Source: Myxococcota bacterium (GTDB lineage Bacteria; Myxococcota_A; Bradymonadia; UBA4248). From it: 62,778 nucleotides of DNA. The position numbers were made by a program, and so were the translations under genes. The notes under the pieces are model-generated. The model searched no databases and had not been told where the DNA came from. It saw only the letters and a program-made list of their open reading frames with translations. Each line of letters opens with the position of its first letter. Within the stretch, counting starts at the first letter, position 1. Where the stretch lies: contig JAZUKH010000265.1 in assembly GCA_045643185.1 (NCBI GenBank), positions 1 through 62,778 of the forward strand, read 5' to 3'. Below are positions 3,877-62,778 of the stretch, piece by piece.

Positions 3877-3891
3877 ACAAGGAGCAGAAAC

Positions 3892-30728: not shown

Positions 30729-30761
30729 CGTTATGAAATGATAATTCATAAGGAAATTGGA

Positions 30762-30871
30762 GAGGGGGAAGTCTCCCCCTACGCGGCTATTTCGTATTTT
30801 GTAGAGTCGTGTGGACGACGCGTCTCTACAAAAATACGAAATACGCCGCTACCCCTTCGCCTGGCAGGGCC
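30762..30871. repeat. REP-like element, copy 3 (reverse orientation), between dapA and dapB
   Basis: GAGGGGGAAGTCTCCCCCTACGCGGCTATT - core with TTGTAGAGTCG...CGCGTCTCTACAA - AATACGCCGCTACCCCTTCGCCTGGCAGGGCC. Confidence 0.9.
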
Positions 30872-34520: not shown

Positions 34521-34634
34521 GGGCGCCGCAGGCAGAGGGGGTAGCGGCGTATTGGTGATTTTTGTAGAGGCGTGTTGTGACACGTCTCTACAAAAAGCAC
34601 AAATAGCCGCGTAGGGGGAGGCTTCCCCCTCCCC
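34521..34634. repeat. REP-like element, copy 4 (forward orientation), between convergent genes
   Basis: GGCGCCGCAGGCAGAGGGGGTAGCGGCGTATT - core TTTGTAGAGGCGTG...CACGTCTCTACAAA - AATAGCCGCGTAGGGGGAGGCTTCCCCCTCCCC. Confidence 0.9.
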
Positions 34635-42342: not shown

Positions 42343-42672
42343 GTGAACTCCTGATATCACTTCGAAAGCATGTTCTTGAGCAATAAAAAATAATCGCGTC
42401 TGACGCCAAAATTTGGGTGAGGCTTTGTGCCTCGTGCCCGTTTTGACGCACGCAACAAACCGGGCCATAAACGTGAGTTTCCTAACCTTATTCAACTCGA
42501 TTGCAAATTTGTCGTAACTATTTTCTGAAAAACGGTTCGCGAAAGGTTTTGTTTTGGCAGCAAAGTAAGCTAAACTTTTTTTCCTTTCGCGCTGAATAGA
42601 AAGAAAAATTGCGTGAAGGGACATCTCACACCAGAAAATGATTCGTTTGGAAGTTTGGAGTCGATCTGTCTC

Positions 42673-46065: not shown

Positions 46066-46275
46066 GGTGGCGCCGCCTATTGCCGTTGGCAATACGGCGG
46101 ACGCGCGGCGGCTTCTCCCTCGTAAGAGACGCAATATTTTGCGTCTCTACTCGGTCAATACGCCGCCGCTTCTTGGTTTTTTGCGTCCACCGTGGCTGTG
46201 TTGAATGCTACGGAGCTACATGGAAACATCGCTCCTGTTGACGCCCCGCTACGCCTTCGCCTGGCGGGGGCGTCA
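46066..46275. repeat. Composite/degenerate cluster of REP-like modules
   Basis: Contains AAGAGACGCAATATTTTGCGTCTCTAC, AATACGCCGCCGC, GCTACGGAGCTACATGGAAAC (the module also found in copy 6) and CGCCCCGCTACGCCTTCGCCTGGCGGGGGC. Confidence 0.7.
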
Positions 46276-46292: not shown

Positions 46293-46321
46293 TTGACAAA
46301 GTATGGCTAAATATAAATAAT
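46293..46321 (+). promoter_or_regulatory. Candidate sigma70-type promoter of the vWA/tubulin-like operon
   Basis: TTGACA (46293-46298) - N17 - AATAAT (46316-46321), 76 nt upstream of the ATG at 46397, in an AT-rich tract. Confidence 0.45.
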
Positions 46322-46396
46322 TGCTAATAAATTAACAACGGTGTTGTTAAAGCCAGGATGGCCTTCAATCATTAATTAATTAGTTAGGATAAAACG

Positions 46397-48685
46397 ATGA
46401 AAAGACTGGCGATTTTAGGAACGGCAGCATTGGCGTCGATGTGCATGTGTGGCATGGCGTATGCGGATACCTATGTTCCTTCACGGACGATCAGTCTTGT
46501 GTATGACGATTCCGGAAGTATGTCGAACCTTGGCACGATCCAGTCGCCGACCTGCGTTGACACGTGGAGCCAGGCTCGCTATGCCATGGAGATCATGGCG
46601 TCGATGTTGGACGAACGGGATCAGCTCAACATCTATTATATGAGCGATTACGAGACGTCTCAGGATGCGCCGCCTCGTCTTCGCCTCAAAGGCAGCCGCG
46701 ATGCGCACGAGATCGAACAGAATGTCGAGCGCGTCCACCAGACGCTCACGCGTGCCGGTGAAACGCCCTTCAACAGCGTTCGCAAAGCCTATAAGGACTT
46801 GGCACATACGGCTTCGGACGAAAACTGGCTCGTCGTACTTACCGATGGTGAGTTTCAGGGCGTCAACGGGCGTATCGAGGACGAGTTCCATAAATACACC
46901 AAGAATCGCCGCGTCAAAGTGATGATGCTCGCCATGGGCGAACAGGCGTCGTTGATCGAAAGTGATGAAGAAAACGGCATCTATTTCGAACATGCCGTGA
47001 CCTCTAAACAGATCCGTTCAAAGCTGACCAAGCTGACGAACCGCATCTTTCAGCGCAACGCGCTGCCGCAAAAGAACGTGGCGACGGTGAGCTTCGACGT
47101 GCCGATGCGTGAGCTCATCGTGTTTGCCCAGGGTAAAGACGTTTCGATCACGAGTTTGTCGACGGAGGGCAAGACCGTGACCCCGTCGTCGAACATTCAC
47201 GCGATGTATTCAAAACAGGCTGCGGAACCGCGTCCGACGTGCAACGTCTTTGACGAGTCGCTGAACGGCAAAGTGGCGACGTTTGACGGTGACTTTGATG
47301 CCGGTACTTATACGATCAACCTCACTGGTTCGCCGGACTCCATCGAGGTCTATTACAAGCCCAATGTCGACGTCCAAATGTATTTTTATGACGGCGTTGG
47401 TAAAGACGTGACCGATAAAGCCAAGTTGAGCAATGGCAAGTACCGTGTTGGTTTTGGCTTTGTGAAGGCTGGCACGAAGGACGCCGTGCCAGCATCGCCG
47501 TTGCTCGGTAATGCGGAATACACGGCCAAGCTCGTCAACAATGACGCTGAACCTGTGACGGTGCATGACGGCGATGTGATTACGATCAGCGAGGGCACGC
47601 TCGTCGGTGACTTCGAAGCGACGTTTTTGAAATATAACCAGGTGCACACGCAGCTGGCGCCGCGCACCATCTTTTTTACAAACGAACTGGTCTGGCAGGT
47701 CGCGTCCCAGGCTCAGCCGCTGGTGCTGACGGCTGATGGCGTAAAAAGTGGCAACGGTGACCTCACGGCACACGTTCGCATGAAGAATAACGAAGGCTCC
47801 GTGAGCGAGCTGACGGACGCGCAGTGGCAGGCCGTCGAGTCGGTCGATGCCGTCGAGATCTTGCCGCCGCCTGACAAGCCACAAAAAAGTCACAGACACA
47901 AGAAAAAGCCCAAAGAACAGCCAAAACGTTTTGTGTTCCAGGCGAACAAGGGCGCCGCAAACGGTGATGTGGCCCTCGACGCCGTTTCGCAGGGCGATCC
48001 CATGATGTTGTGTATGCCCAAAGCCTGGTCGATCACCAAAGCTTTTAAGATCTGGCGCGGTATCGATATTTGCGAAAACGAAAAATTCGTTTATCGCGCC
48101 TGCACCGAGTTTGCGATGGGCGAATCGACCGCTTACGGTTGTTCCGAAGACACACAGGTTCAGGTCAAAAATGGCCTGTCCGGCTTCAGCTTCGTTTTGC
48201 GCTTTTTCCAGGACTGGTGGGGAATGCTCGTCGCCTTGTTCCTGATCTTTGGCTGGGTCAAAAAGCACTGGATGCCTGCGATCGATCGTCGCGTCAAAAT
48301 TCAGATGAAGTCTCAGAATTTCACGACGCGTGACCAGGAGACGAGCGGTCGTTATCAAAGATGTTGGCTCAACTTTTTGCCGTATCGAGACAGTACGGGA
48401 ACGGTGTCGTTAGGCGGCAGCGTCAAAGCAGATGTGCCCAAAACGTTGGAATTGCGTTCCATGGGCGGCAGTAAGTTGAATTTGACCAATGCGTCTAAGT
48501 TTGCTGGCAAAAAGCAGATCACTTTCAATTCGAAAAATGTGGATGAGAGCTACGGCGCCAAGGCGGGTAAAAAACGCGCCAAAAAGCCGTTCGCATTCAA
48601 TACAGAGCAACCCATTGTCATTAAATCAAAAGATTTTACCTATTCATTTGTGCTTCACTCGAAGAAGCTCAGACGACGTAAATAA
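46397..48685 (+). CDS. Exported von Willebrand factor A (vWA) domain protein with a C-terminal TM anchor and basic cytoplasmic tail
   Basis: 762 aa. Signal peptide ends AYA|DT. MIDAS residues: DDSGSM (DxSxS), T in GETPFNS, D in VVLTDGE. One TM helix (WWGMLVALFLIFGWV) lies about 130 aa before the C-terminus. Confidence 0.8.
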   Translation: MKRLAILGTAALASMCMCGMAYADTYVPSRTISLVYDDSGSMSNLGTIQSPTCVDTWSQARYAMEIMASMLDERDQLNIYYMSDYETSQDAPPRLRLKGSRDAHEIEQNVERVHQTLTRAGETPFNSVRKAYKDLAHTASDENWLVVLTDGEFQGVNGRIEDEFHKYTKNRRVKVMMLAMGEQASLIESDEENGIYFEHAVTSKQIRSKLTKLTNRIFQRNALPQKNVATVSFDVPMRELIVFAQGKDVSITSLSTEGKTVTPSSNIHAMYSKQAAEPRPTCNVFDESLNGKVATFDGDFDAGTYTINLTGSPDSIEVYYKPNVDVQMYFYDGVGKDVTDKAKLSNGKYRVGFGFVKAGTKDAVPASPLLGNAEYTAKLVNNDAEPVTVHDGDVITISEGTLVGDFEATFLKYNQVHTQLAPRTIFFTNELVWQVASQAQPLVLTADGVKSGNGDLTAHVRMKNNEGSVSELTDAQWQAVESVDAVEILPPPDKPQKSHRHKKKPKEQPKRFVFQANKGAANGDVALDAVSQGDPMMLCMPKAWSITKAFKIWRGIDICENEKFVYRACTEFAMGESTAYGCSEDTQVQVKNGLSGFSFVLRFFQDWWGMLVALFLIFGWVKKHWMPAIDRRVKIQMKSQNFTTRDQETSGRYQRCWLNFLPYRDSTGTVSLGGSVKADVPKTLELRSMGGSKLNLTNASKFAGKKQITFNSKNVDESYGAKAGKKRAKKPFAFNTEQPIVIKSKDFTYSFVLHSKKLRRRK

Positions 48686-48697
48686 AGGAGAAAACAG

Positions 48698-51600
48698 ATG
48701 ATAGCACCGACATTGTTGATTGGTCTTGGTGGTACGGGATCAAAGATCGTTTGCCGAGTCTCAAAGATGGTTACAGAAGAACAGCGCCGTCGCATTGGCT
48801 TCGCTGTTTTTGATACGGACGTCAACGAGCTTCGTGAGATTCAGGAAGCCAATCCGTTTATCGCAGTGATCCAGACGTCGACGAAGTTGAGCGTGGGTGA
48901 GTATTTGAACATCGACACGTACGCTAGGGACAACTGGTTCCCGGTGAACTCGATCCTGAACAGCAAAACATTGACGGAAGGCGCTGGTCAGGTTCGCGCG
49001 ATCTCACGTCTGGCGCTCGACACGGCGATCCGTGCCAACCTGATGACGCCGTTGCACAAATGCATCGAGAACCTTTACAAACTCGAAGAAGATCAGACGA
49101 GCCAGGCTTTGCGCGTGATCATCGTCAGCTCACTCGCCGGCGGCACCGGTTCGGGCTTGATCTTGCCCGTCGCGCTCTATCTGCGTAATTACTTGGCGAC
49201 GCGTTTTCAGCAGAGTGCCAACATTACACGCGGTTTCTTCATTTTGCCCGAGGTGTTCTACGAAGTCATTCACGGCTCGGCTGAACAAAATAATCTCAAG
49301 TGTAATGCCTACGCGACGTTGCGCGAACTCGACGCGTTTTTGATGAAGGGCGACGGCACGCTGCCGGCGCGTTTTGAAAAAAGCGTGCGTTTGGAATTCC
49401 CGCGCACCGGTTCCGAAAACCACGAAGAATATCAGGTCCGTCCGTACGATTTCTGCTTCCTGTTCGATGCCCAGAACACCGAAGGTAAGAAACTCAATGA
49501 CTTTAACCAATATTTGGATCACGCAGCCAACTGCATCTATGCGCAGTCGATCGGGCCGATGAACAAACGCAGCAACTCGAGCGAAGACAATACGATCCGT
49601 GCTTTGGCGCGCGAACATGGGCGTAACCGCTATGCCGGTGCTGGTTGCTCCATGCTCATCTACCCGTTCGAGGAAGTGCGCGAATACGTGGCCATCAAGT
49701 GGACGCAGCAATGCGTTTCAAACGAGTGGCTGCGTTTCGATAAAATGTACTCCGACAAAAAGAACAAACAGTCGGAAATGCGCGAACAGGGCATCTTGGT
49801 CGGTGATACGATCCGCGGCGATGACTACATCATGACGATCGAATCGCTCGCCAATCAACGTGATCCGTTTGCCAAAACCATGCAGAATCAGTGTATGCGC
49901 TATGGCAACGACGGGTTGGAGGTGCTTGGCAACAAGTGGGATGAATACATCCGTGAATTGAAAAAATTCGTCGAAAACGAAGCGAAGAATCAGTCCGACC
50001 TGGATAGTCAGCGCGATGCGTCACTCGCGCGTCTTTCGGATGTCGAAGGTGATCCCGATACCTATCCCAAGCTTCAGGACGCCATTCGCGAAATTATGAA
50101 ATATTACAACATGGTCGAACGCAAATGCGATGACAAGGCTTCGACCATCGCTTACACGATCTTTCAGGGGCAATCCACCAACGTCACCGCTGAAAGCCGC
50201 GGCTATCAGCTCGAAAGTTATTTGCGCGACGGTTCGGGGGCGTTTATGCATCCGAATGCCGTGCGATACTTCCTCTACCAGGCTAAGAATCGATTCGTTC
50301 AGGAACAGAAAGTGAACGACAACCGCCTCAAAGAGCTGAACGACGCCTTTGGTAAGGACGGGATCGAAGCGATTCTCGATGATCCCAATACGGACGAAGT
50401 GGAGAATATCGACAATCTTGCCGACCGTAAGCGTTCGCTGCGCGACAAATTAAAGAATGCCATGGGTAAACTGACCGACGATCAGGAAGACATGAAGGCG
50501 TCTTTCCAGGGCTTGATCACGAAAGCTGACGAACTGCGCGTTGTGGGCATTCTGAAATATGTGTTCAAAGAAGGTCTGGATTATTTGAACGGCTTGATCG
50601 AAGCCTTCGAGCGCTTTTATGACAACTTTGAACAGAAGGTCAACGGCATGTCGAAGCGACTCGCTGAGATCTCGAAAAAATGCACGAATCAGCCAGGGAA
50701 AACGACGCGTTATGTCTGCTCATCGACGATCTGCTTGAATCGCATGGTCGAAAAACTGGCTTACAAAGGCAGCGTCGTGTCTGTGGACAGCCGTCTGGCC
50801 GACGAGATCTACTCGAAGGTCCGTGGCTATGCCATGGCGAAAGACAAACCGAAAAATGCGTTTGAGACGATCTTTGATGAAGGCATCATCGGTTATTTCA
50901 AAAAACAGATGATGGAGACTTATGGCTCGAAGATCGACATGAACATCATGGACGCGTTGGAACGCGAGGTCGAGTTGGAATCGGGCGAAACCGATATGCC
51001 GCAGGTCATGCTGGATCAGCGCGTGAAGCAGATCATCGAAAATACGCGCGACATGTCGAAGCCGTTCATCGAACGTCCAATGGGTGAAGAAGTGGCCCCG
51101 ATCTCGGCGTGTACCTACAACCCAAGTTTGGACCCGAAAGACGACTCGCCGCGTTCGTCGTTCATTCATCGTGAACTGTCAAACTACGGCGGCACGCCGG
51201 ACGACGATATTTCGCGTTACACGATCATGTTTTACCAGTCGATCTACTCGTTACGCGCGAATCGCCTGTCGAAATTCAGCCCGTCGATCAGCAGCGTGGA
51301 CGGACAAGCGGGCGAGTATTTCAGAGCGTATTATGAACTGGTGAACCAGATCACGCCGATGTCGAACAAGACACCGGTCATTACGCCGCATATCGACTGT
51401 CGTTGGCACGTCGTGGCGAACATGCCCGACCTGGACGATGGCAACCAGAAACGCATTGAAACCCGTATTTACAAGGCATTCATGCTCGGCTTGTTGTATC
51501 ACGTGATCGACTGTGGCAAGACAGCGCGTGGTCGCATTTTGTACAAGCTGCGTTTGAGCGGTTGCGCGCCTGAAGAGTTCGTGGTGTCGAACAAAACGCC

Positions 51601-52264
51601 GTGCGACGAATTCTACGAAGTGCTGGATGCGTTGACGATCAACCCGGTCATCGTGAACCAGATCATGGAAGACGCCGAACGTCGTTTGAAACGTGAGATC
51701 ATCGCCAAGACCTCGTTTGAGCGTTCCATGCTGTATAAGATGATCAAAAGCCTCGTGCTTGAACAGTATCCGATGTTCAAACAGATCACGTTGTTCGACC
51801 TTTGCACGTTGTTGAAAGTCTCAACGCCGTCGGCGAACTTCGACAATGCGACCGGCATCGACATCATGCGTGCCATGTTCGACACCGTGTATGATTACAT
51901 GACGAAGATCATGCCCCAAAGCGAAGTCGAAGTGGCTTATGGCAAATTCCTGAATGAGCAATACAACCTGTTTGAAAAGAACCTGGTGAATTATCGCAAC
52001 ATTCAGGACTGTGAAGGCGTCGCCACGGATTGTCTCAAAAATTGCGATTTTGTCGATTTCGTCGATGATATGGTGTTGGCACTCAATCACATTCTCGAAA
52101 CGCTGGAACTGGATTCGACGCGTGACGAGATCGAGACGCGTTGGCATCTGAAAAAGCGAGGCATTCGTGAGTTGACTGAGCCTGCAGAGTCGAGTGAAAG
52201 CGTGCTGAACTCGTCGGATGAAGCCGCGTTGAACCTCAACCCGGACGATGGTTGGCAAGTCTAG
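48698..52264 (+). CDS. Giant tubulin/FtsZ-superfamily GTPase-like protein (N-terminal ~230 aa) with a ~950-aa helical extension
   Basis: 1188 aa, RBS AAGGAG, start 12 nt after the vWA stop. It has collinear FtsZ-like motifs: T1 LIGLGGTGSKIV, FAVFDTDVNEL (cf NTDAQAL), T3 TEGAGQVRAISR (cf GLGAGA), and the T4 tubulin signature AGGTGSG (aa 147-153, nt 49136-49156). After T4 comes FFILPEVF...NAYATLRELD. Confidence 0.8.
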   Translation: MIAPTLLIGLGGTGSKIVCRVSKMVTEEQRRRIGFAVFDTDVNELREIQEANPFIAVIQTSTKLSVGEYLNIDTYARDNWFPVNSILNSKTLTEGAGQVRAISRLALDTAIRANLMTPLHKCIENLYKLEEDQTSQALRVIIVSSLAGGTGSGLILPVALYLRNYLATRFQQSANITRGFFILPEVFYEVIHGSAEQNNLKCNAYATLRELDAFLMKGDGTLPARFEKSVRLEFPRTGSENHEEYQVRPYDFCFLFDAQNTEGKKLNDFNQYLDHAANCIYAQSIGPMNKRSNSSEDNTIRALAREHGRNRYAGAGCSMLIYPFEEVREYVAIKWTQQCVSNEWLRFDKMYSDKKNKQSEMREQGILVGDTIRGDDYIMTIESLANQRDPFAKTMQNQCMRYGNDGLEVLGNKWDEYIRELKKFVENEAKNQSDLDSQRDASLARLSDVEGDPDTYPKLQDAIREIMKYYNMVERKCDDKASTIAYTIFQGQSTNVTAESRGYQLESYLRDGSGAFMHPNAVRYFLYQAKNRFVQEQKVNDNRLKELNDAFGKDGIEAILDDPNTDEVENIDNLADRKRSLRDKLKNAMGKLTDDQEDMKASFQGLITKADELRVVGILKYVFKEGLDYLNGLIEAFERFYDNFEQKVNGMSKRLAEISKKCTNQPGKTTRYVCSSTICLNRMVEKLAYKGSVVSVDSRLADEIYSKVRGYAMAKDKPKNAFETIFDEGIIGYFKKQMMETYGSKIDMNIMDALEREVELESGETDMPQVMLDQRVKQIIENTRDMSKPFIERPMGEEVAPISACTYNPSLDPKDDSPRSSFIHRELSNYGGTPDDDISRYTIMFYQSIYSLRANRLSKFSPSISSVDGQAGEYFRAYYELVNQITPMSNKTPVITPHIDCRWHVVANMPDLDDGNQKRIETRIYKAFMLGLLYHVIDCGKTARGRILYKLRLSGCAPEEFVVSNKTPCDEFYEVLDALTINPVIVNQIMEDAERRLKREIIAKTSFERSMLYKMIKSLVLEQYPMFKQITLFDLCTLLKVSTPSANFDNATGIDIMRAMFDTVYDYMTKIMPQSEVEVAYGKFLNEQYNLFEKNLVNYRNIQDCEGVATDCLKNCDFVDFVDDMVLALNHILETLELDSTRDEIETRWHLKKRGIRELTEPAESSESVLNSSDEAALNLNPDDGWQV

Positions 52265-52312
52265 TTACGCCGTGCCGGTGCACGGCGAGTGATGGCATAT
52301 CACGCCGTCGTG

Positions 52313-52447
52313 CGTGCCGTAGGCAGAGAGGGTAGCGGCGTATTGGCGATGGCGATGTTTCCATGTAGCGCCGTAGCATGCTACGGCGTTACATGGAAAC
52401 GATAAATCGCCGCCAATAGCCGCGTAGGGGGAGACTTCCCCCTCCCC
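52313..52447. repeat. REP-like element, copy 6 (forward orientation), inside the operon between genes 2 and 3
   Basis: GTGCCGTAGGCAGAGAGGGTAGCGGCGTATT - core GGCGATGGCGATGTTTCCATGTAGCGCCGTAGCATGCTACGGCGTTACATGGAAACGATAAATCGCCGCC - AATAGCCGCGTAGGGGGAGACTTCCCCCTCCCC. Confidence 0.9.
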
Positions 52448-52523
52448 AAAAACACAAGAGTTCTTTGAAAACCGCTCACTTCGGGGCTCAAAGCGATCAC
52501 CCAAGTGAAAAAGGTTGAGGAAT

Positions 52524-54545
52524 ATGTACACCGTCATCATCGTCAACAAGCGCACTTCAGACTTTATGCAGTCGCATCGATTTTTGTTCGAGCCGTTTAT
52601 TCGCAACGGTGAGCTGGATATTTGCGACTGGAATGAGGGCGGAACGGACGTGAATTCGTCGATTCCGGATCTTTACAAGCTGATTCGCGGCAAGCGCATT
52701 TGGCGCGCGCTGATTTTGAATACGGATTCGCTTGTGGGGTATCATGGCTGCGCGATGCCGAAGCGCGATAATCCGTACGATTTTTCGGACCTGGATGATG
52801 AGATCATGCCGCATGAGAGCCCGATTCCATTGATTCGTCTGACGCACATTTTGGGCGGATACGCGTCGGCGCCGCAAAAATCGTTCGAGAAAGGCTTTGA
52901 ATACGTCGATCAGGAAAGCGGCGAAATCGTTCGAAGACTAGAAAGTGAGCTGTCGTTGGAGGATCTGAGCGAGTTGTCGGATCAGTACGGCGAGTCGCTC
53001 AAAGCCGTGTATATGGAAAAGCCTGAAGATGCGAGTTTTGCGCAGAAACAGGCGGAAATGGCCGAGCGATATACGTTTGACTCGGTTCGTCCGCGCGAGA
53101 TCATGCTTGTTTCGACGCGTCAGAAGAACGAAGAGAACGACCGTCGCAAGATCGTGGCGTCGTGGCTCGACCATTTGGAGACGGGCAGTTCGAGTTTTTG
53201 GGAACGCAATAAATACCCGAATTGTTGTCGCTTCATGTTTTGTGAGATCAGTCGCACGGACAACGCGCGGTATGAGCAGGACGTGTGTCAATTTTGGCTT
53301 GCTGTTCTGACGTTGGCGTTAAATCAGATCTCGCCGAGTTCGCTTCAGGCTTATCGCTTGTATAAATTGAGCGTGGATCTTTCGATGGAGGTGCTTCAGG
53401 CGCGTATTTGTCAGCACCTGAACCTTCTGGAGTCGGCGAAGCGTGTGGTCAATGACGCGTTGGCGCAGTTGCCGGAATACGATTTTGCGACGGACGAACA
53501 GGTCTTGGCGATCGAAAAGGTGCCTTTGGTCGTCGAAACGAAGGACGACGGCGAATCGCCTTTGGAAGTCAAGGCGGACGCGTACGTGAAACACGATGAC
53601 ACGTTGGGCAGCTACGCCACGATGCGCGCACAAAGTCAGAAAAACCTCGCCCGACAAATGCAGAACCCCCGGCGAGGTATCGATCGCGCGGCCAAACTCG
53701 TGCGAAGTAAGGCGAAAGGCTATTACGGCACTTATTGTGAACTGGATGAATTTCAGATCGATGATCTAAAAGAATCGGTCCGCGATTATGAGCTTAAGGT
53801 GTTCACGACGCGGCCTAAGAATATATATAATAAGAAAAAGACCATGGAAAAAGGCGCCGAGGTCGTTCGGAACCTTCAACTGGAGATTCCGGAGCCGATG
53901 ACGAGCTATCAGTTGATCGTCGCCGGTGTCATCGCGCTCGTCCTGGTGATTTTGGGCAATTTGACCTATTTGGTGGATTCGTATGACGCGGGGACGTTGC
54001 TCGAAGCGTTTTTGCTGACCGTCGCCATCGTTTTGGTGACCGCCATTGGCGGCATTGTGGCGCTCAAATGGCACCAGTCTGTCATGGAACAAAAAATTTC
54101 GGCGCTGCAAAAGCCCATTCGTGATCACGCCAACGAGATCCAAAAAAGCAATGCCCTGTTTGAAGACTATTTCACAAATGTTTGCACTTATATGAAAGGT
54201 CGCTCCATGCTGATCGGAACACAAATGTGTGACGATGACTGCACGACCGATCGAAAACGTTATAGTGCGCACCTCAAAGCCTTGTCAAAAGCCATTGAGC
54301 GCGATCAGAAATGGTTATTTAATTATGATATTAAGCGCATCAATGAAGAAAAAATATATAATATCGATAAGATCTTCGATGTGAACGAATTGCCCATTAA
54401 TAATAAATTATATTGGTTTGAACCGAATGAAGAAACGGATTCCATTGTGTTGAATGCGACCGGGGATACCTGTAACGCGCCGTACAAGTTCGTGACGCGC
54501 TTGTACGTTGAACGCGAAGAGATCTTTGATGATGCGGAGAAATAA
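52524..54545 (+). CDS. Hypothetical protein with a large N-terminal soluble part and a TM hairpin (no recognisable domain)
   Basis: The ORF track starts at TTG 52515. ATG 52524 is preferred but uncertain. Two adjacent TM helices are present (LIVAGVIALVLVILGNLTYLV, FLLTVAIVLVTAIGGIVALKW). I see no catalytic motif. Confidence 0.7.
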   Translation: MYTVIIVNKRTSDFMQSHRFLFEPFIRNGELDICDWNEGGTDVNSSIPDLYKLIRGKRIWRALILNTDSLVGYHGCAMPKRDNPYDFSDLDDEIMPHESPIPLIRLTHILGGYASAPQKSFEKGFEYVDQESGEIVRRLESELSLEDLSELSDQYGESLKAVYMEKPEDASFAQKQAEMAERYTFDSVRPREIMLVSTRQKNEENDRRKIVASWLDHLETGSSSFWERNKYPNCCRFMFCEISRTDNARYEQDVCQFWLAVLTLALNQISPSSLQAYRLYKLSVDLSMEVLQARICQHLNLLESAKRVVNDALAQLPEYDFATDEQVLAIEKVPLVVETKDDGESPLEVKADAYVKHDDTLGSYATMRAQSQKNLARQMQNPRRGIDRAAKLVRSKAKGYYGTYCELDEFQIDDLKESVRDYELKVFTTRPKNIYNKKKTMEKGAEVVRNLQLEIPEPMTSYQLIVAGVIALVLVILGNLTYLVDSYDAGTLLEAFLLTVAIVLVTAIGGIVALKWHQSVMEQKISALQKPIRDHANEIQKSNALFEDYFTNVCTYMKGRSMLIGTQMCDDDCTTDRKRYSAHLKALSKAIERDQKWLFNYDIKRINEEKIYNIDKIFDVNELPINNKLYWFEPNEETDSIVLNATGDTCNAPYKFVTRLYVEREEIFDDAEK

Positions 54546-57500
54546 ATGATGGATCAGATGTCTTTATTTCATTCGATTTTATGGTGTTTCGGTTTTTTGA
54601 TGATCAGCGTAGCGTGCATAGCGATCAATTTGCCGAAACCGAATCGCGGCCGCCAATTTTTGTTGCCGATCGTCGCGGTGATCTTCAGCATCGTGGCTAT
54701 GGTCGGTATTGAAGAGATCTCTGAAGAAGTTCAGGGCGTCATTGAGCAGTCGCCGCTGATCTTGTTGTTGATCGGCAATGTCGAGATCGGCGCAGCCCTG
54801 ATCTACGTGGTCAACATCGCTATCGTGGGCGCGTTCTTTTTGACCAAGGCTGTGCTTTTGCCCGTCGTTAATTTGATCTGGCGCAAAGAAGCCGTCATGG
54901 AACTCACGTCGGGCTATTTCTATGACCACATCGTGATTTCTTCAGCCAAACCAGCCAAGAATAGCGACGCGTCGGATGAAGACGAAGGGGAGGACGAGGA
55001 AGACAAGGTCGAATCGTCTGACCAGGAAGACGAAGACCAAAACGTCGAAGCCAAGTCGTCGAAGGAGGACGCTGACAAAAACTCGTCCAAGAAAGACGAG
55101 CCTGACGAAGAATGGATCGTCAAAAAAGAATTTCTGCAATTCAAGACCTATTATTGGGGCTTCTATGCCGCGTTGTTGGTCGTCATCACGACGATCTTTT
55201 TGCTTTCCCAGTATTTTCCGGATTGGGAAGTCTTTGAAGCGATCTTTTACCCGGCTTTTGCCGTGTTGATCTTGGGCGAAGTGGCGTGTTACCTGTCCGG
55301 TAAAGAAGAACGAACGCCGTTGCCGCCCGCGCCCGAGAAGGTCAAAAAGCCTGAACCTGTGCCGGAATATGACTTTTTGCGCAAGATCATGCGCGACTTG
55401 TTTGGTGATCGCGATCTGCATGACTGTGTGTTGATGCCTGAAGCCATAACGAGCGATGAACAGCGTCATTTGGATCGACTGAGTGCAAGTCCGGACGAGA
55501 CGGATAAACTCGTCTCGGCGTATTTTGAACGTTTGCAGCAGGAAGGCATTGGTCTGGATGAGAACGGCATCGACATGACGACGTGGCTCATGCACGGTCA
55601 CAGCGTGTTGGTGTGTAACCCGTTCTACAAGGATCTGACGCACTACTTGTTGATGCCGATGATCCACCACTTGATGGATTTTCACAAATGCCTCGTGGTG
55701 GTCGGGCGCGATTCGGCGGTTGACGATGTTAAAGCCTGGTTGGAACGCGGCATTCTCGATTTTTCGGGCACGAATAGCTTGTGGCACACCGAGGTCGTTT
55801 CAAAACTGGCTTGTGAGGCCGACGTGGGCGTGTTGCGCGCGTGCGACTTGTATAATCAGGAGATCATCGATAACAATCGCGCGTTTTGGTCGCAGGTCGG
55901 TTTTGTGTTTATCGTGGAACCGTCGCGCATTTTGGCGACGGCACAAATGGGTCTGAGCATTTTGATCAGCCATTGCGAGCGCGCCGACAAAGAGATCGTT
56001 TACTGTGCGTGTGATCGCAACTGCGACGGGCTTGTCGATAGCCTTTCACACGTGCTGCGCACGAGTTTGACCGAGGTCAGCGCGACGCCACTGGGCAACG
56101 CGTGCTCGTCACAGATGTTCTGGCAGGCCAACGGGGCTTTCATTCAACACCGCATTTTCCCCGCCATTTCACGTTACTTGGGCATGGGCACCGAGTTTGG
56201 GGCGCTCGCCCTCAAACATCACATCACGCCGACGACCTGGCTCAGTTGTGACAAGTTCCCCGTCGTGGACATGAAATGGGTGAGCGGTCAATACTATCGT
56301 CAGATCTGCCAGTTCACGGCTTTGCCCGTTAGCCAGGCTGAGTTCAACGCAGCATTTCTCGTGCAGCCAAATTTGTGGCACGAAGAAAAGCGCGAAAATG
56401 CCTACCTCACGGTGGAAGACGAGTTTCAAAACCTGTTCGAAGTGTCGCGCATCTTCATGTCGCGTGCGACGAAGCAGAGTTTTATCAACGTCATCAGCGA
56501 AAACTACTTTTTGCGAGACTACATGGTGGCGAATGTTCAGACGTTTATGGGCGACATGAAAGCGCTTCCGACGATCGTGCCGGACTTCGCACGCACCGAA
56601 CGCAACGTCGTGCTTAAGCTCGTCATGATGATGTTGAACGGGGTCGTGCGCGATGACATCATCGAGCGCGAGTTTAGACTTTGTGGCATCGCTTATCACG
56701 ACATTTACACGAAGCTCGTCGAGCTCATCGCCAAACACTGCGGTGTTGAAGATCCAAGGCTGAGCGTGCACTTTGATGAGGAAGTGGTTGAAAACGCGTT
56801 GGAATCGCGACAGATCCGTTCGTACGACATCAAAGACAACGTTGCGTTGTCGGCATACGCTCGGACGCTTCAGACGGCGTATTTTGTGGCCGAAGACGAG
56901 GTGGATGCGAGCCATCATTTGGGCGCCAAACTCTATGGTCACGTGTTCCAGACGGTGTTGCCCGGCCAGTACATCACGTTTGAAGGCAAGTACTACGAAG
57001 TTTTGCGCGTGACGCCTGAGAGCAGCATTGTCGTGCGCCGCGCGGCGGATCATTTGAGCGACCGCGTTTATTATCGTCAACTTCGTAAGATCCACCTTCA
57101 TCGTTGGGTTGCCGACGAGGCGATGGGCGCCAACCGCGTGTTTTCGCAGATCGGTCTGACGCGTGGCTTCGTCGATTTTGACGTCTCGACCCTCGGCTAT
57201 CTTGAACTTTCGTCGTATGAAGATCTAAAGACCGCGCGCCGCGTCGTTGTGAGTGGCATTCCATCGCGTTCGTATGTCAACAAGAGCGCGTTGCGCGTTC
57301 GGTTGCCAGGTGTCAGCCGCGAAACGCTGTTCACGATCTGTTTGCTTCTCAACGAGATCTTCCGCACGACCTATCCGGATTCCAACCAGTTTGTGGCGGC
57401 GGTGCTGCCGACCGAGGCGTATGCGGATTCGGCGTTGAGCGAAGCCGTTTACGGCTTCGAGGGTGAGTGTGAACCTGACTGCTTTTATATTCTGGAAGAC

Positions 57501-58025
57501 AGCGTTATCGACCTCGGATTGGTCGTTTCGGTCGAGCGCAATCTCAAGCGTTACTTTGAGATCATCACCGAAGTTTTGGCCTGGCACCTCGAAAAACTCG
57601 TCGAAGTGCCTGAACCGACTGATTCGGATGAAGAAGCCAAGGCTCATGACGCGGCGAAAGACGAGCTCGTCGAAACCGCGGAAGTTGCCCCCGTTAAAGA
57701 AAAGATGGGGCTGTTTGCCCGCATCATCGCCTGGTTCAAGAACCTGTTCGTGGGGGGCGACCTCAAAAACGTGGCGGATGAATTGCCTGACGAGACACAA
57801 AACAAGGATACCGCCAAAAAAGCTGAAGAAAAGCCCGTGCTGAAACCGTTGCCCTATGCCGAACGTTGTTTCCTCAAATACGGTTTTGAGGCGTTCGATC
57901 CGATGTTAGACGTGGAACAAACGCTTGCCTATCTTTGCCAGTTTGGTTTTGAGCACAACGCCCTGGCTTCGGTGCGCGAAGCCGCGCAGTCGCGACAAAA
58001 AGAAGCAGGTCGAACGGCTGAGTAA
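54546..58025 (+). CDS. Hypothetical polytopic membrane protein with an acidic linker and a ~880-aa cytoplasmic region (no recognisable domain)
   Basis: 1159 aa. The ATG directly follows the upstream TAA (TAAATG). About 4 N-terminal TM helices, a D/E/K/S-rich stretch (DASDEDEGEDEEDKVESSDQEDEDQ...), then 2 more TM helices and a large soluble region without a P-loop. Confidence 0.75.
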   Translation: MMDQMSLFHSILWCFGFLMISVACIAINLPKPNRGRQFLLPIVAVIFSIVAMVGIEEISEEVQGVIEQSPLILLLIGNVEIGAALIYVVNIAIVGAFFLTKAVLLPVVNLIWRKEAVMELTSGYFYDHIVISSAKPAKNSDASDEDEGEDEEDKVESSDQEDEDQNVEAKSSKEDADKNSSKKDEPDEEWIVKKEFLQFKTYYWGFYAALLVVITTIFLLSQYFPDWEVFEAIFYPAFAVLILGEVACYLSGKEERTPLPPAPEKVKKPEPVPEYDFLRKIMRDLFGDRDLHDCVLMPEAITSDEQRHLDRLSASPDETDKLVSAYFERLQQEGIGLDENGIDMTTWLMHGHSVLVCNPFYKDLTHYLLMPMIHHLMDFHKCLVVVGRDSAVDDVKAWLERGILDFSGTNSLWHTEVVSKLACEADVGVLRACDLYNQEIIDNNRAFWSQVGFVFIVEPSRILATAQMGLSILISHCERADKEIVYCACDRNCDGLVDSLSHVLRTSLTEVSATPLGNACSSQMFWQANGAFIQHRIFPAISRYLGMGTEFGALALKHHITPTTWLSCDKFPVVDMKWVSGQYYRQICQFTALPVSQAEFNAAFLVQPNLWHEEKRENAYLTVEDEFQNLFEVSRIFMSRATKQSFINVISENYFLRDYMVANVQTFMGDMKALPTIVPDFARTERNVVLKLVMMMLNGVVRDDIIEREFRLCGIAYHDIYTKLVELIAKHCGVEDPRLSVHFDEEVVENALESRQIRSYDIKDNVALSAYARTLQTAYFVAEDEVDASHHLGAKLYGHVFQTVLPGQYITFEGKYYEVLRVTPESSIVVRRAADHLSDRVYYRQLRKIHLHRWVADEAMGANRVFSQIGLTRGFVDFDVSTLGYLELSSYEDLKTARRVVVSGIPSRSYVNKSALRVRLPGVSRETLFTICLLLNEIFRTTYPDSNQFVAAVLPTEAYADSALSEAVYGFEGECEPDCFYILEDSVIDLGLVVSVERNLKRYFEIITEVLAWHLEKLVEVPEPTDSDEEAKAHDAAKDELVETAEVAPVKEKMGLFARIIAWFKNLFVGGDLKNVADELPDETQNKDTAKKAEEKPVLKPLPYAERCFLKYGFEAFDPMLDVEQTLAYLCQFGFEHNALASVREAAQSRQKEAGRTAE

Positions 58026-58081
58026 CCGTATCGCAGGTGACATCACCAGTTATGAAAAGTCGAGATGCTGGTGATGGTCGA

Positions 58082-58109
58082 TTTGAGCGCGCGAAAAGGC
58101 GCGCTCAAA
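58082..58109. terminator. Hairpin terminator between the convergent operon end and the ankyrin gene
   Basis: TTTGAGCGCGC-gaaaag-GCGCGCTCAAA (11-bp stem), followed by CGCATTTTGTG. A second hairpin CATCACCAG/CTGGTGATG lies at 58043-58078. Confidence 0.6.
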
Positions 58110-58138: not shown

Positions 58139-59035
58139 TTACTTTTTTTCAGTTTTGGGCGCGGCACTGAGGACGTCGAGGATCGCCTGGTTGCCGTCGG
58201 GCAAATGATAATCGGTGGCCTGAATGACTTGGCTGGGCGTGATACCGTCGTTGTCTTTGAGCTGGGCATCAGCGCCAGCCGCGATCAGCGCCGACGTGAT
58301 CTTGGGGTCGAGGGCAAAAAAGATCGGTGAGCGGCCACGACTGTCGGTTGCATTGACGTCGGCGCCGCCCGCGATCAGGGCTGTCACAAGGTCGGCATTG
58401 AGTGTGCGATACACGACTTTGGCGTCGTACGTGTTGTTTGGATTCACGACGTGGTCTTTGGTGTGCACCGTGTAGGGATTTGGATCGGTCAGGTCGATGA
58501 CGTTCTGAATGACTTTTTGCTGGTCACCCTCGATCAGGTTCTGGTGTATCGAGGTGGCGTAGTGCAGTGCCGTATAGCCATTGATGTCGCGTTTGGTCAG
58601 GTCGGCTTTGCCGGCAATGAGTTTTTGCACGACATCGAGGTCCTGATGGACAATGGCGAGCATGAGCGCTGTGACTTCGGGACCGACCTGGACGTCAAGA
58701 TCGGCGCCGGCCGCGATGAGCAGGTCGATCGTGTCGTGATTGGCAAAGAAAATGGCCGTCTTGCCGTCAAATGACGGCAGATTGACATCGGCTTTGGCCG
58801 TGATCAGGGATCTCACCGACGCAGCGTCACGAGCAACCATGAGCGGCGTCAGGCCTTCGTGGTTTTGCGCGTTGATGTCGCTGTTCAGAATGATGGCGTC
58901 GACATTGGTCGAGTCGATATAGCAATTGGATTGCGGCCATTGCTTACAGGCGGTCGGGGCGGGAACGCTCGTGGACTGGCAGGCACTCAAGAGCGTGAAA
59001 GCCAACATGGATGAGAGAATGAGTGACTTTTTCAT
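58139..59035 (-). CDS. Ankyrin-repeat lipoprotein
   Basis: 298 aa, lipobox LSAC. Several ANK-like units are present (GLTPLMVA...LI.AKADVN, GYTALHYA, GRSPIFFA...LIAAGAD). It starts 20 nt after the dnaE stop. Confidence 0.8.
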   Translation of the reverse strand: MKKSLILSSMLAFTLLSACQSTSVPAPTACKQWPQSNCYIDSTNVDAIILNSDINAQNHEGLTPLMVARDAASVRSLITAKADVNLPSFDGKTAIFFANHDTIDLLIAAGADLDVQVGPEVTALMLAIVHQDLDVVQKLIAGKADLTKRDINGYTALHYATSIHQNLIEGDQQKVIQNVIDLTDPNPYTVHTKDHVVNPNNTYDAKVVYRTLNADLVTALIAGGADVNATDSRGRSPIFFALDPKITSALIAAGADAQLKDNDGITPSQVIQATDYHLPDGNQAILDVLSAAPKTEKK

Positions 59036-62670: not shown

Positions 62671-62748
62671 GTGAAATTCTCAACCAATAAAGAATTGTGC
62701 AGAAACAGAGAAATGGCCGTGTCGTCGGGATGGCGTTTGGGATTTTGG

Positions 62749-62778
62749 GAGGGGGAAGTCTCCCCCTACGCGGCTATT
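62749..62778. repeat. REP-like element, copy 7 (reverse orientation), truncated by the window end
   Basis: GAGGGGGAAGTCTCCCCCTACGCGGCTATT, identical to the left arms of copies 2 and 3. Confidence 0.85.

Follow-up and report, generated by a model that had tools for sequence, protein, structure and literature searches.

Operons centred on FtsZl1 proteins were predicted in 2010, and membrane remodelling was the function proposed for them; the FtsZl1 family carries neither recognisable T6-H7/T7 elements nor the C-terminal domain of FtsZ and tubulin (Makarova & Koonin 2010, PMC2875224). Additional file 5 of that paper lists the arrangement vWA-FtsZl1-"B5"-"B12" for Ruminococcus lactaris and "Bacteroides" capillosus. 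The catalogue did not recognise a helicase fold in B12, and it did not demonstrate strict synteny of the four genes (PMC2875224).

The operon described here lies in a stretch of 62,778 nucleotides, all of which was analysed (the window), and is almost certainly a chromosomal copy of the vWA-FtsZl1-B5-B12 cassette, one architectural type of these FtsZl1-centred operons. An earlier note on this DNA correctly pointed to the 2010 paper and the Pfam family Tubulin_2, and it presented the operon as an undescribed system; that description cannot stand, because the exact layout, with matching protein sizes, appears in Additional file 5. The R. lactaris type encodes proteins of 732, 1136, 678 and 1418 aa, compared with 762, 1188, 673 and 1159 aa in the window, in the same order and on the same strand. 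The R. lactaris and "B." capillosus type also resembles the window in having an exported, membrane-anchored vWA protein and a membrane-associated B12. A sequence bridge to R. lactaris is provided by locus L067, whose ORF sizes equal those of RUMLAC_01528-01531, and the window FtsZl1 protein is 60% identical to that encoded on a contig where the ORFs upstream have the sizes of RUMLAC_01529-01531. The two differ in that the zinc finger and zincin protease from which B12 was annotated in 2010 are missing from the window B12, and in that the window host is apparently a Myxococcota-like diderm whereas the 2010 type is a Clostridium. The search for an experimentally characterised counterpart was negative in PADLOC (none of the four proteins matched), NCBIfam and PDB sequence searches, in line with the earlier note.

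Organization of the operon

Four intact ORFs lie on the + strand: gene 1 (46397–48685, 762 aa), gene 2 (48698–52264, 1188 aa), gene 3 (52524–54545, 673 aa; the B5 equivalent) and gene 4 (54546–58025, 1159 aa; the B12 equivalent). The sequence reads TAA, 12 nt containing AGGAG and then the gene 2 ATG at the first junction, and TAAATG at the junction of genes 3 and 4. For gene 3, a TTG codon offers an alternative start (52515–54545, 676 aa), but the consensus start of the orthologues, MYTVII, matches at the ATG at 52524, which we therefore take as the start. A candidate sigma-70-like promoter, TTGACA-N17-AATAAT (46293–46321, + strand), lies 76 nt 5' of the gene 1 ATG; with 11 of 12 matches it is the top candidate between 45200 and 59100, judged by consensus match only. 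At the other end, a GC-rich terminator-like hairpin (58082–58109, + strand; 11 pairs, 7 of them GC) is located between gene 4 and a convergent ankyrin-repeat gene (58139–59035, − strand) and is common to both. The GC content of the operon (0.49–0.54) falls within the range of the window (0.42–0.57). Gene number and sizes, junctions, promoter candidate, hairpin and native composition are thus all as the earlier note had given them.

The 250-nt spacer between genes 2 and 3 (52265–52514) contains a perfect palindrome with arms of 22 nt (52357–52400) and a predicted RNA hairpin energy of −35.7 kcal/mol. Segments of this spacer recur at at least five other intergenic sites of the window, and copies of the dispersed repeat modules also lie 5' of the promoter candidate (46125–46270, with a half-site at 46207–46227), where they match 17836–17904, 30846–30865 and 52352–52400. 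The palindrome and the intergenic repetition bear out the description of the spacer as REP-like. Because the corresponding spacer in orthologous loci spans just 20–120 nt, the element is a lineage-specific insertion.

Architecture of the four proteins

Gene 2 belongs to the FtsZl1 family, matching Pfam Tubulin_2 with E = 4.1e-61, so that its earlier assignment as tubulin/FtsZ-like holds. The match to Pfam Tubulin (E = 2.5e-6) is under the gathering score of that model, and the ftsZ equivalog model of NCBIfam gives 12.7 bits against a cut-off of 295. The GTPase head spans residues 6–340 and contains the glycine-rich loops GLGGTGS (9–15) and AGGTGSG (147–153), which are invariant among the homologues; about 90% of the head columns are conserved. 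Beyond the head lies a conserved C-terminal region of ~850 aa. We counted 1858 homologues of gene 2. No TM segment was found in gene 2, consistent with the cytoplasmic location proposed before. That gene 2 polymerises, or assembles in a GTP-driven manner, is an assumption, because FtsZl1 proteins are without the elements for canonical filament formation.

Gene 1 is a transmembrane receptor-like protein. A hydrophobic N-terminal signal (signal peptide 1–23) precedes a divergent vWA domain (~30–220) and a beta-rich variable region, and hydropathy indicates a single TM helix (~603–625) followed by a basic tail of ~135 aa (~628–762). The MIDAS (DxSxS...T...D) is complete, with D37, S39, S41, T123 and D150 invariant across 27 orthologues. 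These features agree with the topology in the earlier note; the profile match to the vWA domain is weak, with VWA_2 at E = 0.0099, which fails the cut-off, and matched in just three of the 27 orthologues. Nowhere in the cassette is conservation lower than in this extracytoplasmic part; within gene 1, residues 451–600 are the least conserved.

The AlphaFold2 model of gene 3 (pLDDT 84) predicts a cytoplasmic alpha/beta domain (1–315), a long helical bundle with a membrane hairpin (~461–530) and a small C-terminal beta domain (640–665). The hairpin consists of two adjacent TM helices (~464–520), as the earlier note had described for an otherwise soluble protein. Neither a Pfam match for the family (93 homologues) nor a significant structural relative of the model was detected.

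Gene 4 consists of a membrane part (residues 1–250), with five TM helices and an acidic disordered loop, and a cytoplasmic part of ~900 residues. The earlier estimate of about six TM helices was therefore one too many, and that of ~880 cytoplasmic residues was close. In the AlphaFold2 model (pLDDT 82, pTM 0.72), residues ~276–1018 form a complete MrfA/YprA-like helicase chassis, which Foldseek aligned to 6znp_A with E = 1.3e-21 over 811 columns (TM 0.55 on target), 14 orders of magnitude better than to the next helicase family. The likeness is one of fold without sequence-level similarity: a profile search against PDB was negative, Pfam DEAD, Helicase_C and DUF1998 were unmatched, and the four-cysteine zinc site of DUF1998 is not conserved. 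Walker A is missing in all 40 homologues compared, with NPFYxDLT in its place; motif II is replaced by xEPS, with loss of DExH, and a DxNxDGxxD loop is kept in 40 of 40. On the basis of the model, B12 is a membrane-anchored MrfA/YprA helicase fold stripped of its ATP-binding motifs, recognised newly here. Most relatives end in a zinc ribbon and a zincin peptidase, the HExxH motif being present in 30 of the 40; the window copy has neither. P-loops are absent from genes 1, 3 and 4. The gene 4 family numbers 933 clusters at 50% identity, and genes 3 and 4 are not the orphans that they had been taken for.

Conservation and distribution of the cassette

Co-conservation of the four genes in other genomes had been named as a check of the operon. 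In every sufficiently long locus, from 59 species-representative genomes, the four genes are all present and their order is unchanged, and reciprocal look-ups starting from gene 4 also recover the four-gene synteny. The hosts are Clostridia, Proteobacteria/Myxococcota MAGs, Erysipelotrichales, Actinobacteria and a Treponema; gene 2 identity across them is 38–66% and the distribution is patchy. The cassette is passed on as a unit in at least five bacterial phyla, and among gut and rumen bacteria its four genes move horizontally together. The protein identity of 55–66% between the window cassette and those of gut Clostridia points to horizontal acquisition at some stage. One locus (L070) has genes 3 and 4 without genes 1 and 2, indicating that the four are not strictly obligate partners.

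Insertion sites are highly diverse, the 147 neighbour clusters representing 139 Pfam families. The neighbours of some loci include TIR-WD40, KAP NTPase, type III Cas7/Csm3, BrxB, PifA, QatA, PbeA and TOTE-primase genes, defence genes being a minority of the neighbours in this uncontrolled listing. The 3' end is modular: gene 4 occurs without extension, with a zincin or with a zincin and a transglutaminase fused, and some loci add an alternative fifth gene for a transglutaminase-like protein or an FtsK-like ATPase. The window operon is surrounded by housekeeping genes (DnaE, RNase J, CorC) and not by a defence island; the Hma system of the window is 39 kb away. No copy of the cassette was found in 2.9 million viral contigs, and plasmid records held distant FtsZl1 relatives only.

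Proposed mechanism and alternative explanations

We tentatively favour the reading of the cassette as a self-contained, envelope-anchored, GTP-switched surveillance or conflict module, a possibility to which we give less than even weight. Gene 1 would display the metal-dependent binding site of its MIDAS vWA domain on the outer face of the cytoplasmic membrane, and ligand binding could be relayed through the single TM helix to the basic cytoplasmic tail. Gene 3, with its hairpin and helical stalk, and gene 4, with its five TM helices and helicase-derived domain, would form a membrane platform, on which gene 2, the sole NTPase of the window copy, would bind GTP through its intact tubulin-type loops and assemble as a switch or scaffold. 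The cytoplasmic domain of gene 4, which in the model keeps the closed MrfA-type architecture (RecA1-RecA2-WH-OB-CON-MZB-like), is predicted to be unable to hydrolyse ATP and, when nucleic acid or some other polymer reaches the membrane, would most likely serve as its static clamp or sensor; we infer a nucleic-acid-binding role from the modelled fold. The output in most relatives would be the zincin peptidase at the gene 4 C-terminus, to which some may add the fifth gene product. Since the peptidase and the fifth genes are lacking in the window copy, where no recognisable effector domain was found, any output would have to come from an action of genes 3 and 4 at the membrane, unless this copy is a reduced variant. 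Circumstantial pointers to surveillance or conflict are the patchy distribution, the diverse insertion sites, the modular 3' end, the variable gene 1 ectodomain and the structural likeness of gene 4 to the YprA-family helicases; the blank PADLOC result, the lack of viral copies, the merely distant plasmid relatives, the housekeeping context, the small share of defence genes among the neighbours, the missing effector domain, the FtsZl1 lack of filament elements, the unconserved zinc site of gene 4 and the split locus count against it.

A close rival, itself rather doubtful, is a machine for membrane remodelling or vesicle biogenesis, an accessory of cell biology and not of immunity, in which the FtsZl1 GTPase assembles at the inner membrane and, with genes 3 and 4, bends, repairs or pinches it while gene 1 ties the complex to some part of the envelope. 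This reading is the prediction published in 2010; it accords with an FtsZ/tubulin superfamily GTPase whose partners are all membrane-anchored, with the housekeeping context in the window and with the only structural echoes of gene 3, which are to alpha-pore-forming toxins and a bacterial dynamin pair (E = 0.008–0.035, not significant). The reviewers of the 2010 paper, however, remarked that the hypothesis was founded solely on localisation (PMC2875224), and it leaves the helicase-derived domain, the zincin peptidase and the transglutaminase or FtsK fifth genes unexplained; the patchy, cross-phylum distribution at variable sites would also be unusual for a core function of the cell. One of the reviewers proposed transport or signalling roles (PMC2875224). 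In a non-immune signalling or regulated-proteolysis system, the ligand sensed by the vWA domain would belong to the host, the matrix or the cell wall, as in adhesion, and GTP-dependent assembly would activate the gene 4 peptidase to cleave a regulator. A vWA/MIDAS domain with a beta-rich ectodomain is characteristic of adhesins and receptors, the zincin module is widespread in the gene 4 family, and commensals of the gut and rumen are enriched among the hosts of the cassette. We nevertheless consider this improbable: the hosts are both monoderm and diderm, and in diderms the vWA domain would be periplasmic and external ligands therefore out of its reach; no conserved transcription factor or anti-sigma factor was found among the neighbour genes, and the window copy is wholly without the peptidase.

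In an apparatus for translocating nucleic acid or protein (in uptake, export or as a conjugation accessory), genes 3 and 4 would form a membrane channel, at which a polymer would be handled by the helicase-like gene 4, together with an FtsK/SpoIIIE ATPase in the loci that have one. An FtsK/SpoIIIE gene lies directly 3' of the cassette in eight loci, gene 4 shares the MrfA-like ring architecture, which surrounds ssDNA in the structure that has been solved, and its TM region echoes conjugation TM proteins in NCBIfam (E = 0.004–0.17). Those matches are far below the cut-offs, however, FtsK is missing from most loci and from the window, gene 4 has no ATPase motifs, and relaxase, pilin, VirB4-like and competence genes are not recurrent in the neighbourhoods, making translocation very unlikely. 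Equally little weight goes to a decaying remnant, in which the window cassette has lost its peptidase output and the REP hairpin uncouples expression of genes 3 and 4. This would account for a gene 4 of 1159 aa where nearly all relatives have 1320–1500 aa (1366 aa in the closest, L006) and for a strong spacer hairpin that orthologous loci do not have. Yet none of the four ORFs is disrupted, no residue invariant in the family has been lost, and short gene 4 forms recur independently in 10 of the 40 homologues (including L013, L038, P0172, P0173 and P0179), so that the short form looks like a viable variant. REP elements within operons, moreover, commonly leave co-transcription intact.

Comparison with known systems

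The envelope-anchored surveillance module that we tentatively favour has partial parallels among known systems. With FtsZ, tubulin, TubZ and BtubAB, gene 2 shares the N-terminal nucleotide-binding domain with its tubulin-type glycine-rich loops; it has no FtsZ_C or Tubulin_C domain, carries ~850 extra residues, and its setting is not one of division, segregation (TubR/tubC) or BtubAB. Like the bacterial dynamin-like proteins BDLP, DynA and LeoA, the cassette would be a large GTPase-centred membrane machine, and the helical stalk and membrane-inserting hairpin of gene 3 faintly resemble the dynamin stalk and paddle (5owv, E = 0.035, not significant); gene 3, however, has no GTPase domain or P-loop, and the GTPase of the cassette is folded like tubulin and not like dynamin.

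In TerY-P and other vWA conflict systems, a vWA/MIDAS protein partners a nucleotide-dependent switch. The cassette would share this partnership with them, and it has neither a PP2C phosphatase nor a kinase; gene 1 is exported and membrane-anchored rather than cytoplasmic, and PADLOC gave no match. In the membrane-anchored anti-phage systems Zorya and Kiwa, surveillance of the envelope by an inner-membrane complex is linked to a cytoplasmic component that handles nucleic acid. The cassette resembles them in concept only, as an analogy and not by homology: the PADLOC models for ZorA-D and KwaA/B did not match, the cassette includes neither a MotAB-like stator nor a nuclease, and its NTPase has the tubulin fold.

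The MrfA/YprA family includes MrfA in DNA repair, DrmA in DISARM and DruE in Druantia, with further members in ARMADA, BRIGADE and TALON. The abstract of a 2025 YprA census places the helicases of this family at the centre of DISARM, Dpd, Druantia and ARMADA, and the census does not mention the gene 4 family (bioRxiv 10.1101/2025.09.15.676423). Gene 4 differs from the DUF1998 SF2 helicases of the MrfA/YprA family by its fusion to five TM helices and has no associated nuclease, but its cytoplasmic part, as modelled, shares their whole-chain fold and domain order.

Organisation of the operon

The operon comprises four intact open reading frames on the + strand, encoding a probable vWA-type exported protein (g1; 46397–48685, 762 aa), a tubulin-like GTPase (g2; 48698–52264, 1188 aa) and two membrane proteins (g3 and g4). 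The g3 frame extends over 52515–54545 from a TTG codon (676 aa); the ATG at 52524 is the better start because g3 orthologues begin with MYTVII, which corresponds to that ATG and yields the ~673 aa proposed in the earlier note. The g4 frame occupies 54546–58025 (1159 aa), and the sequence at the g3/g4 junction reads TAAATG. The 12-nt gap between the g1 stop codon and the g2 start contains an AGGAG. Upstream of g1, TTGACA-N17-AATAAT (46293–46321) is the best sigma-70-like match in the region, agreeing at 11/12 positions, and a GC-rich hairpin (58082–58109) lies between g4 and a convergent ankyrin-repeat gene; as a candidate promoter and terminator, both are consensus matches only. These sizes, junctions and signals all agree with the earlier description from sequence. 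An Rfam scan of the operon region returned nothing above the gathering score. Below that score, Rfam gave one weak match inside the ankyrin-repeat ORF (58902–58967, − strand), to the Pseudomonas sRNA P10 (26.1 bits, gathering score 37, E = 0.0066), which probably arose by chance.

The g2–g3 spacer measures 250 nt and contains a perfect palindrome with 22-nt arms (52357–52400), for which the RNA hairpin energy is −35.7 kcal/mol. Segments of this spacer recur in the window at 17.9, 19.7, 30.8, 34.6 and 62.75 kb and upstream of g1, so the element belongs to a dispersed REP-like family, as had been suspected. The copies (17836–17949, 19662–19724, 30757–30865, 34525–34634, 46125–46270, 52316–52449 and 62747–62778) are GC-rich, palindromic, intergenic and composed of several modules, in the manner of REP or MITE elements. 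One of them fills the g2–g3 spacer and another is located upstream of g1. The g2–g3 gap in orthologous loci is only 20–120 nt, and the spacer element is therefore a late insertion.

The g4 protein is predicted to be a membrane-tethered helicase fold lacking ATPase motifs

A confident AlphaFold model of g4 (pLDDT 82, pTM 0.72) places five transmembrane (TM) helices and a disordered acidic loop within residues 1–250, followed by a cytoplasmic body. The best PDB match of this body in Foldseek is MrfA, a DUF1998 helicase (6znp_A, E = 1.3e-21, 811 aligned columns), and the next helicase families, Hel308, PolQ, Brr2 and Lhr, follow at ~1e-7. Its secondary-structure elements run in the same order as those of the published MrfA domains RecA1-RecA2-WH-OB-CON-MZB, and among them is a long three-stranded sheet at residues 842–919. 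The catalytic signatures of such helicases are missing. The Walker A motif (GxxxxGK[ST]) at the β1–α1 junction is absent from 40/40 g4 homologues, which have a conserved NPFYxDLT there; the motif II (DExH) position reads xEPS; and the four cysteines that form the DUF1998 zinc site are not conserved, with no column in residues 920–1020 carrying Cys in more than 23 of the 40 sequences. Searches of g4 against Pfam DEAD, Helicase_C, DUF1998 and PDB profiles gave no match at E ≤ 1. A profile search with the short forms of g4 recovered only family members among its best 150 matches, with no sequence bridge to true helicases. The main new result of this analysis is this modelled fold, which predicts g4 to be a membrane-tethered, motif-dead helicase of the MrfA/YprA type.

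Within the RecA1-like domain of g4, a DxNxDGxxD loop (residues 490–498) is present in 40/40 homologues and resembles a calcium-binding or EF-hand-type metal-binding loop. The poly-acidic disordered loop of ~50 aa between TM3 and TM4 (residues 134–185) is specific to the window lineage, as relatives are ~55 aa shorter at this position.

The g4 family contains 933 clusters at 50% identity (E ≤ 0.001), with 443 of them at E ≤ 1e-30. Most homologues are 1320–1500 aa long, and at their C-terminal end a zinc ribbon (CxxC...CxxC) precedes a zincin-like peptidase (HExxH...E); the ribbon is found in 32 and HExxH in 30 of the 40 homologues. Pfam matches to DUF6782, DUF6055 and BSP are weak but consistent (9–10 of 10 members). 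The g4 of the closest relative of the window locus (L006; 1366 aa) has the ribbon and the peptidase, unlike the window copy, in which neither CxxC...CxxC nor HExxH was found. The g4 proteins of a Myxococcales MAG (L013) and of a Leucobacter MAG are similarly short, as are several from metagenomes. Some metagenomic homologues (P0209, P0216–P0220 and P0226; 1821–1969 aa) carry an N-terminal extension with Cu_amine_oxidN1, subtilase S8 and Big_2 domains, which could reflect either a genuine fusion with an extracellular protease or two genes merged during gene calling.

The partner proteins of g4

The g2 protein scores 207.7 bits on the Pfam family Tubulin_2 (PF13809; cut-off 27, E = 4.1e-61), with residues 6–340 covering profile positions 1–355 of 356. 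Its glycine-rich GTP loops, GLGGTGS (9–15) and AGGTGSG (147–153), agree with the GGGTG(S/T)G-like signature of tubulin-type GTP binding and are invariant in eight diverse homologues. The proposal that g2 is tubulin/FtsZ-like is thereby borne out, and its sequence places it unambiguously in Tubulin_2, that is, in the FtsZl1 family defined by Makarova and Koonin in 2010 (PMC2875224). Within the 1188 aa of g2, the head domain is ~90% column-conserved among relatives and a C-terminal region of 850 aa is also conserved. Homologues are detectable in 1858 proteins, the best 120 of which cover ~95% of the length at 50–66% identity. The FtsZl1 family lacks elements needed for canonical filaments (PMC2875224). 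As no P-loop was found in g1, g3 or g4, g2 is the sole predicted NTPase of the window cassette.

For g1, hydropathy and sequence predict a signal sequence at the N-terminus, one TM helix around residue 610 and, on the cytoplasmic side, a basic tail of ~135 aa. Its match to VWA_2 spans profile positions 3–107 of 107 but stays below threshold (16.9 bits, cut-off 27, E = 0.0099), and no more than 3 of 27 orthologues have a match at E ≤ 0.01. The MIDAS residues (DxSxS plus a downstream Thr and Asp), namely D37, S39, S41, T123 and D150, are invariant in the 27 orthologues and show vWA-like spacing. The sub-threshold but full-length match and the invariant MIDAS suggest that g1 likely contains a divergent vWA domain. 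Within the cassette, sequence varies most in the membrane-proximal part of the g1 ectodomain. The g1–g2 pair is kept in all loci, and a g1-type vWA partner was also detected in a distant Bacillus FtsZl1 locus (HMM, E = 1.5e-38).

A confident AlphaFold model of g3 (pLDDT 84) consists of an α/β domain (residues 1–315), a long helical bundle tipped by a predicted two-helix membrane hairpin, and a small C-terminal β domain. No relatives of g3 were found in Pfam, PDB sequence profiles or structures, and Foldseek searches against PDB and viral structures gave nothing below E = 0.007. Echoes of α-pore-forming toxins and of dynamin were not read as homology. Sequence-profile searches of the PDB, run from alignments of each of the four proteins and of the zincin module, yielded no significant match, and NCBIfam gave nothing usable for any of the four.

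The four genes travel as one block across phyla

A cassette scan using one genome per species returned 59 loci. Every sufficiently long locus has g1-g2-g3-g4 in the same order and orientation, with absences only at contig ends, and the block is present in at least five phyla, so that the cross-phylum co-occurrence which the earlier note proposed to check is observed. The hosts are mostly gut or rumen Clostridia (Acutalibacteraceae, Lachnospiraceae and Oscillospiraceae), including the cultured carriers Faecalicatena contorta ET51, Dorea spp. and Butyrivibrio sp. FCS014. Copies most closely related to that of the window come from 'Proteobacteria' and Myxococcota MAGs (g2 identity up to 66%), and further hosts are one MAG each of Erysipelotrichales and Leucobacter and a Prevotella bin. 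Looking up divergent g4 homologues added a Bifidobacteriaceae contig with the full cassette and a Treponema contig on which g2-g3-g4 starts at the first base. Conservation decreases in the order g2 > g4 > g3 > g1.

The only exception to four-gene synteny seen is a Peptococcaceae-type metagenome contig (L070, 6988–12917), on which g3 and g4 lie side by side; the 9 kb upstream of the pair contain neither a vWA nor an FtsZl1 gene, but genes for aldehyde and alcohol dehydrogenases. Conservation of the block is therefore very strong rather than absolute, with g3–g4 the tightest pair, and this contig suggests that g3–g4 is a separable sub-module. The description of genes 3 and 4 as orphans does not hold; the g4 family is large, with an MrfA-like modelled fold, and g3 and g4 are syntenic in relatives.

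HMMs of g3 and g4 gave no match in the distant FtsZl1 loci of Bacillus sp. N5-665 and Azospirillum. On the Azospirillum ramasamyi plasmid NZ_CP029832.1 (528408–540013), the gene for a distant FtsZl1 protein (1146 aa) precedes those for two hypothetical proteins (710 and 1118 aa), after which comes a protein with a g1-like vWA N-terminus. The two hypotheticals resemble g3 and g4 in size but are not matched by the g3 and g4 HMMs; they may be partners that are analogous or very divergent.

Variation at the 3' end and genomic setting

Directly 3' of g4, three alternative fifth genes occur, each in a minority of loci: an unannotated protein with 4–5 TM helices (13 loci, e.g. L007:12898–14811), a transglutaminase-core protein (10 loci, e.g. 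L003:19548–20792) and an FtsK/SpoIIIE-family ATPase of ~1170 aa (8 loci, e.g. L022:19697–23212). The transglutaminase core is fused to g4 in some proteins, such as P0152. None of the three alternatives is present in the window, and the 'B13' gene of Ruminococcus lactaris did not recur in the loci compared.

A census of 147 non-redundant neighbour proteins found 139 different Pfam families, indicating very diverse insertion sites, and the neighbours include ordinary metabolism and sporulation genes. Defence genes encoding TIR-WD40 and KAP NTPase proteins adjoin the cassette in three loci (L003, L004 and L016). Type III Cas7/Csm3, BrxB, PifA, QatA, PbeA, TOTE primase and WYL proteins also occur as neighbours at other loci, the census giving plain occurrences. 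Phage carriage was rejected, as no relative was found in IMG/VR (2.9 million viral contigs), and plasmid carriage was rejected, as the plasmid records contain distant FtsZl1 proteins only. The single 'Bacteriophage sp.' match (L067, MT836542.1) is an unverified, unannotated 9.8-kb human fecal contig with the ORF sizes of the R. lactaris chromosome locus, and in all likelihood is a piece of bacterial chromosome wrongly labelled as phage.

In the window, the operon has a housekeeping setting; its neighbours are a TSP3-repeat amidohydrolase, a Cys-rich small protein, an ankyrin lipoprotein, DnaE, RNase J and a CorC-type transporter. Elsewhere in the window, large exported proteins with thrombospondin type 3 repeats, one of them amidohydrolase-fused, and with four TIG domains (42613–45252, 7820–10273 and 12494–15727, + strand), a DUF1302 outer-membrane-type protein (18101–19654) and a Ser/Thr kinase fused to AAA_16 (26112–29303) suggest a Myxococcota-like diderm host. 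A low-GC stretch (0.42–0.48) at 367–7452 (+ strand), 39 kb from the operon and not linked to it, gives near-full-length PADLOC matches to HmaC (367–3780, +; E = 1.7e-288, also HEPN_Swt1 and DUF499) and HmaA (3892–7452, +; E = 0, SNF2 helicase and NOV_C). This is a known defence system of the Hma type, possibly cut off by the start of the window.

Possible functions of the cassette

What the analysis shows of the cassette is its parts list, predicted topology and synteny, the loss of ATPase motifs, and the peptidase that is present in some copies and absent from others. We tentatively favour an envelope-anchored surveillance or conflict module, in which the four proteins would form one membrane complex, g2 would assemble in a GTP-dependent manner and g4 would bind a nucleic acid. 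This preference arises because the cassette is patchily spread across phyla, occupies many insertion sites, some of them in defence islands, exchanges its 3' modules and varies in its ectodomain, and because active relatives of the g4 fold are core to DISARM, Druantia and ARMADA, to which YprA-family helicases are central according to a preprint (bioRxiv 10.1101/2025.09.15.676423). Several observations weigh against a conflict role: no known defence model matches (PADLOC-DB v2.0.0 gave no match for g1–g3 and only JetB, at E = 0.35, for g4), the operon's surroundings in the window are of a housekeeping kind, no effector is evident in this copy, and FtsZl1 lacks elements for canonical filaments (PMC2875224).

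One specific form of the conflict reading, which we regard as somewhat unlikely, makes the cassette an unrecognised anti-phage or anti-plasmid immune system in which the tubulin-fold GTPase would act as an activation switch and the membrane-tethered, ATPase-dead YprA-like protein as a sensor of nucleic acid entering at the membrane. If true, this would mark the first time that a protein of the tubulin superfamily is seen to serve immunity, and would add a new membrane-anchored branch to the YprA helicase radiation behind DISARM, Druantia and ARMADA. A serious rival, unlikely in our estimate, is membrane remodelling, which was proposed in 2010 for vWA/FtsZl1 operons with lineage-specific membrane proteins (PMC2875224); the cassette would then offer a compact system in bacteria for studying how tubulin-fold proteins act on membranes. 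Non-immune signalling or proteolysis is improbable, and polymer translocation and local decay of the window copy are each very improbable.

FtsZl1 is among the most divergent branches of the tubulin superfamily, and one type of FtsZl1 operon is now sharply defined and testable as four genes travelling together. The cassette is very common in human and animal gut Clostridia, with a single sequence cluster found on more than 100 contigs, and its cultured carriers make deletion or heterologous expression feasible. The predicted pseudo-helicase would connect a cytoskeletal-type GTPase with a fold that elsewhere lies at the centre of anti-phage systems, which provides a concrete hypothesis.

Comparison with known systems

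Literature searches found no experimental data on FtsZl1 sixteen years after its prediction, and searches on tubulin- or FtsZ-like proteins with antiphage function, on DUF1998 and on the NCBI product name gave no relevant result. In a 2023 phylogenetic study, Tubulin_2 proteins served only as an outgroup and were treated as uncharacterised, and a 2025 census of YprA-family helicases makes no mention of tubulin, FtsZ, vWA or transmembrane forms. The cassette itself, which the earlier note took to be undescribed, already appears as a supplementary-table entry in Additional file 5 of the 2010 study, where two loci have a vWA-FtsZl1-B5-B12 layout, one in R. lactaris and one in 'Bacteroides' capillosus (BACCAP_04124–04121) (PMC2875224). 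The unverified fecal contig (MT836542) provides a sequence bridge from the window to this entry, because its ORFs of 269, 739 and 732 aa followed by FtsZl1 have the sizes of RUMLAC_01531–01528 and its g1 and g2 are homologous to those of the window (g2, 60% identity). From size, order and this bridge, we infer that g3 is B5 and g4 is B12.

Compared with the 2010 type, in which four co-directional genes encode vWA, FtsZl1, B5 (~660–680 aa) and B12 (~1400 aa), the window has an identical order and g1–g3 sizes within 5%. B12 is described there as a Zn finger fused to a zincin protease (PMC2875224), whereas the g4 of the window lacks both, and the window is thus a truncated-B12 variant. The locus is ordinary for its class, which is a well-defined, widespread cassette. 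Compared with canonical FtsZ and TubZ, g2 falls below the thresholds of the Tubulin and ftsZ models, scores 12.7 bits against a cut-off of 295 on the TIGR00065 equivalog and has no detected FtsZ_C or Tubulin_C domain, and its operon neighbours are not dcw or TubR-type genes. Compared with the MrfA/YprA SF2 helicases, the modelled g4 is alike in fold and domain order but lacks ATP-binding motifs I and II, the zinc cysteines and a sequence-profile match. The layout of the cassette was known already; what is new here is the identification of g4/B12 as a predicted motif-dead, membrane-tethered pseudo-helicase of the MrfA/YprA type.
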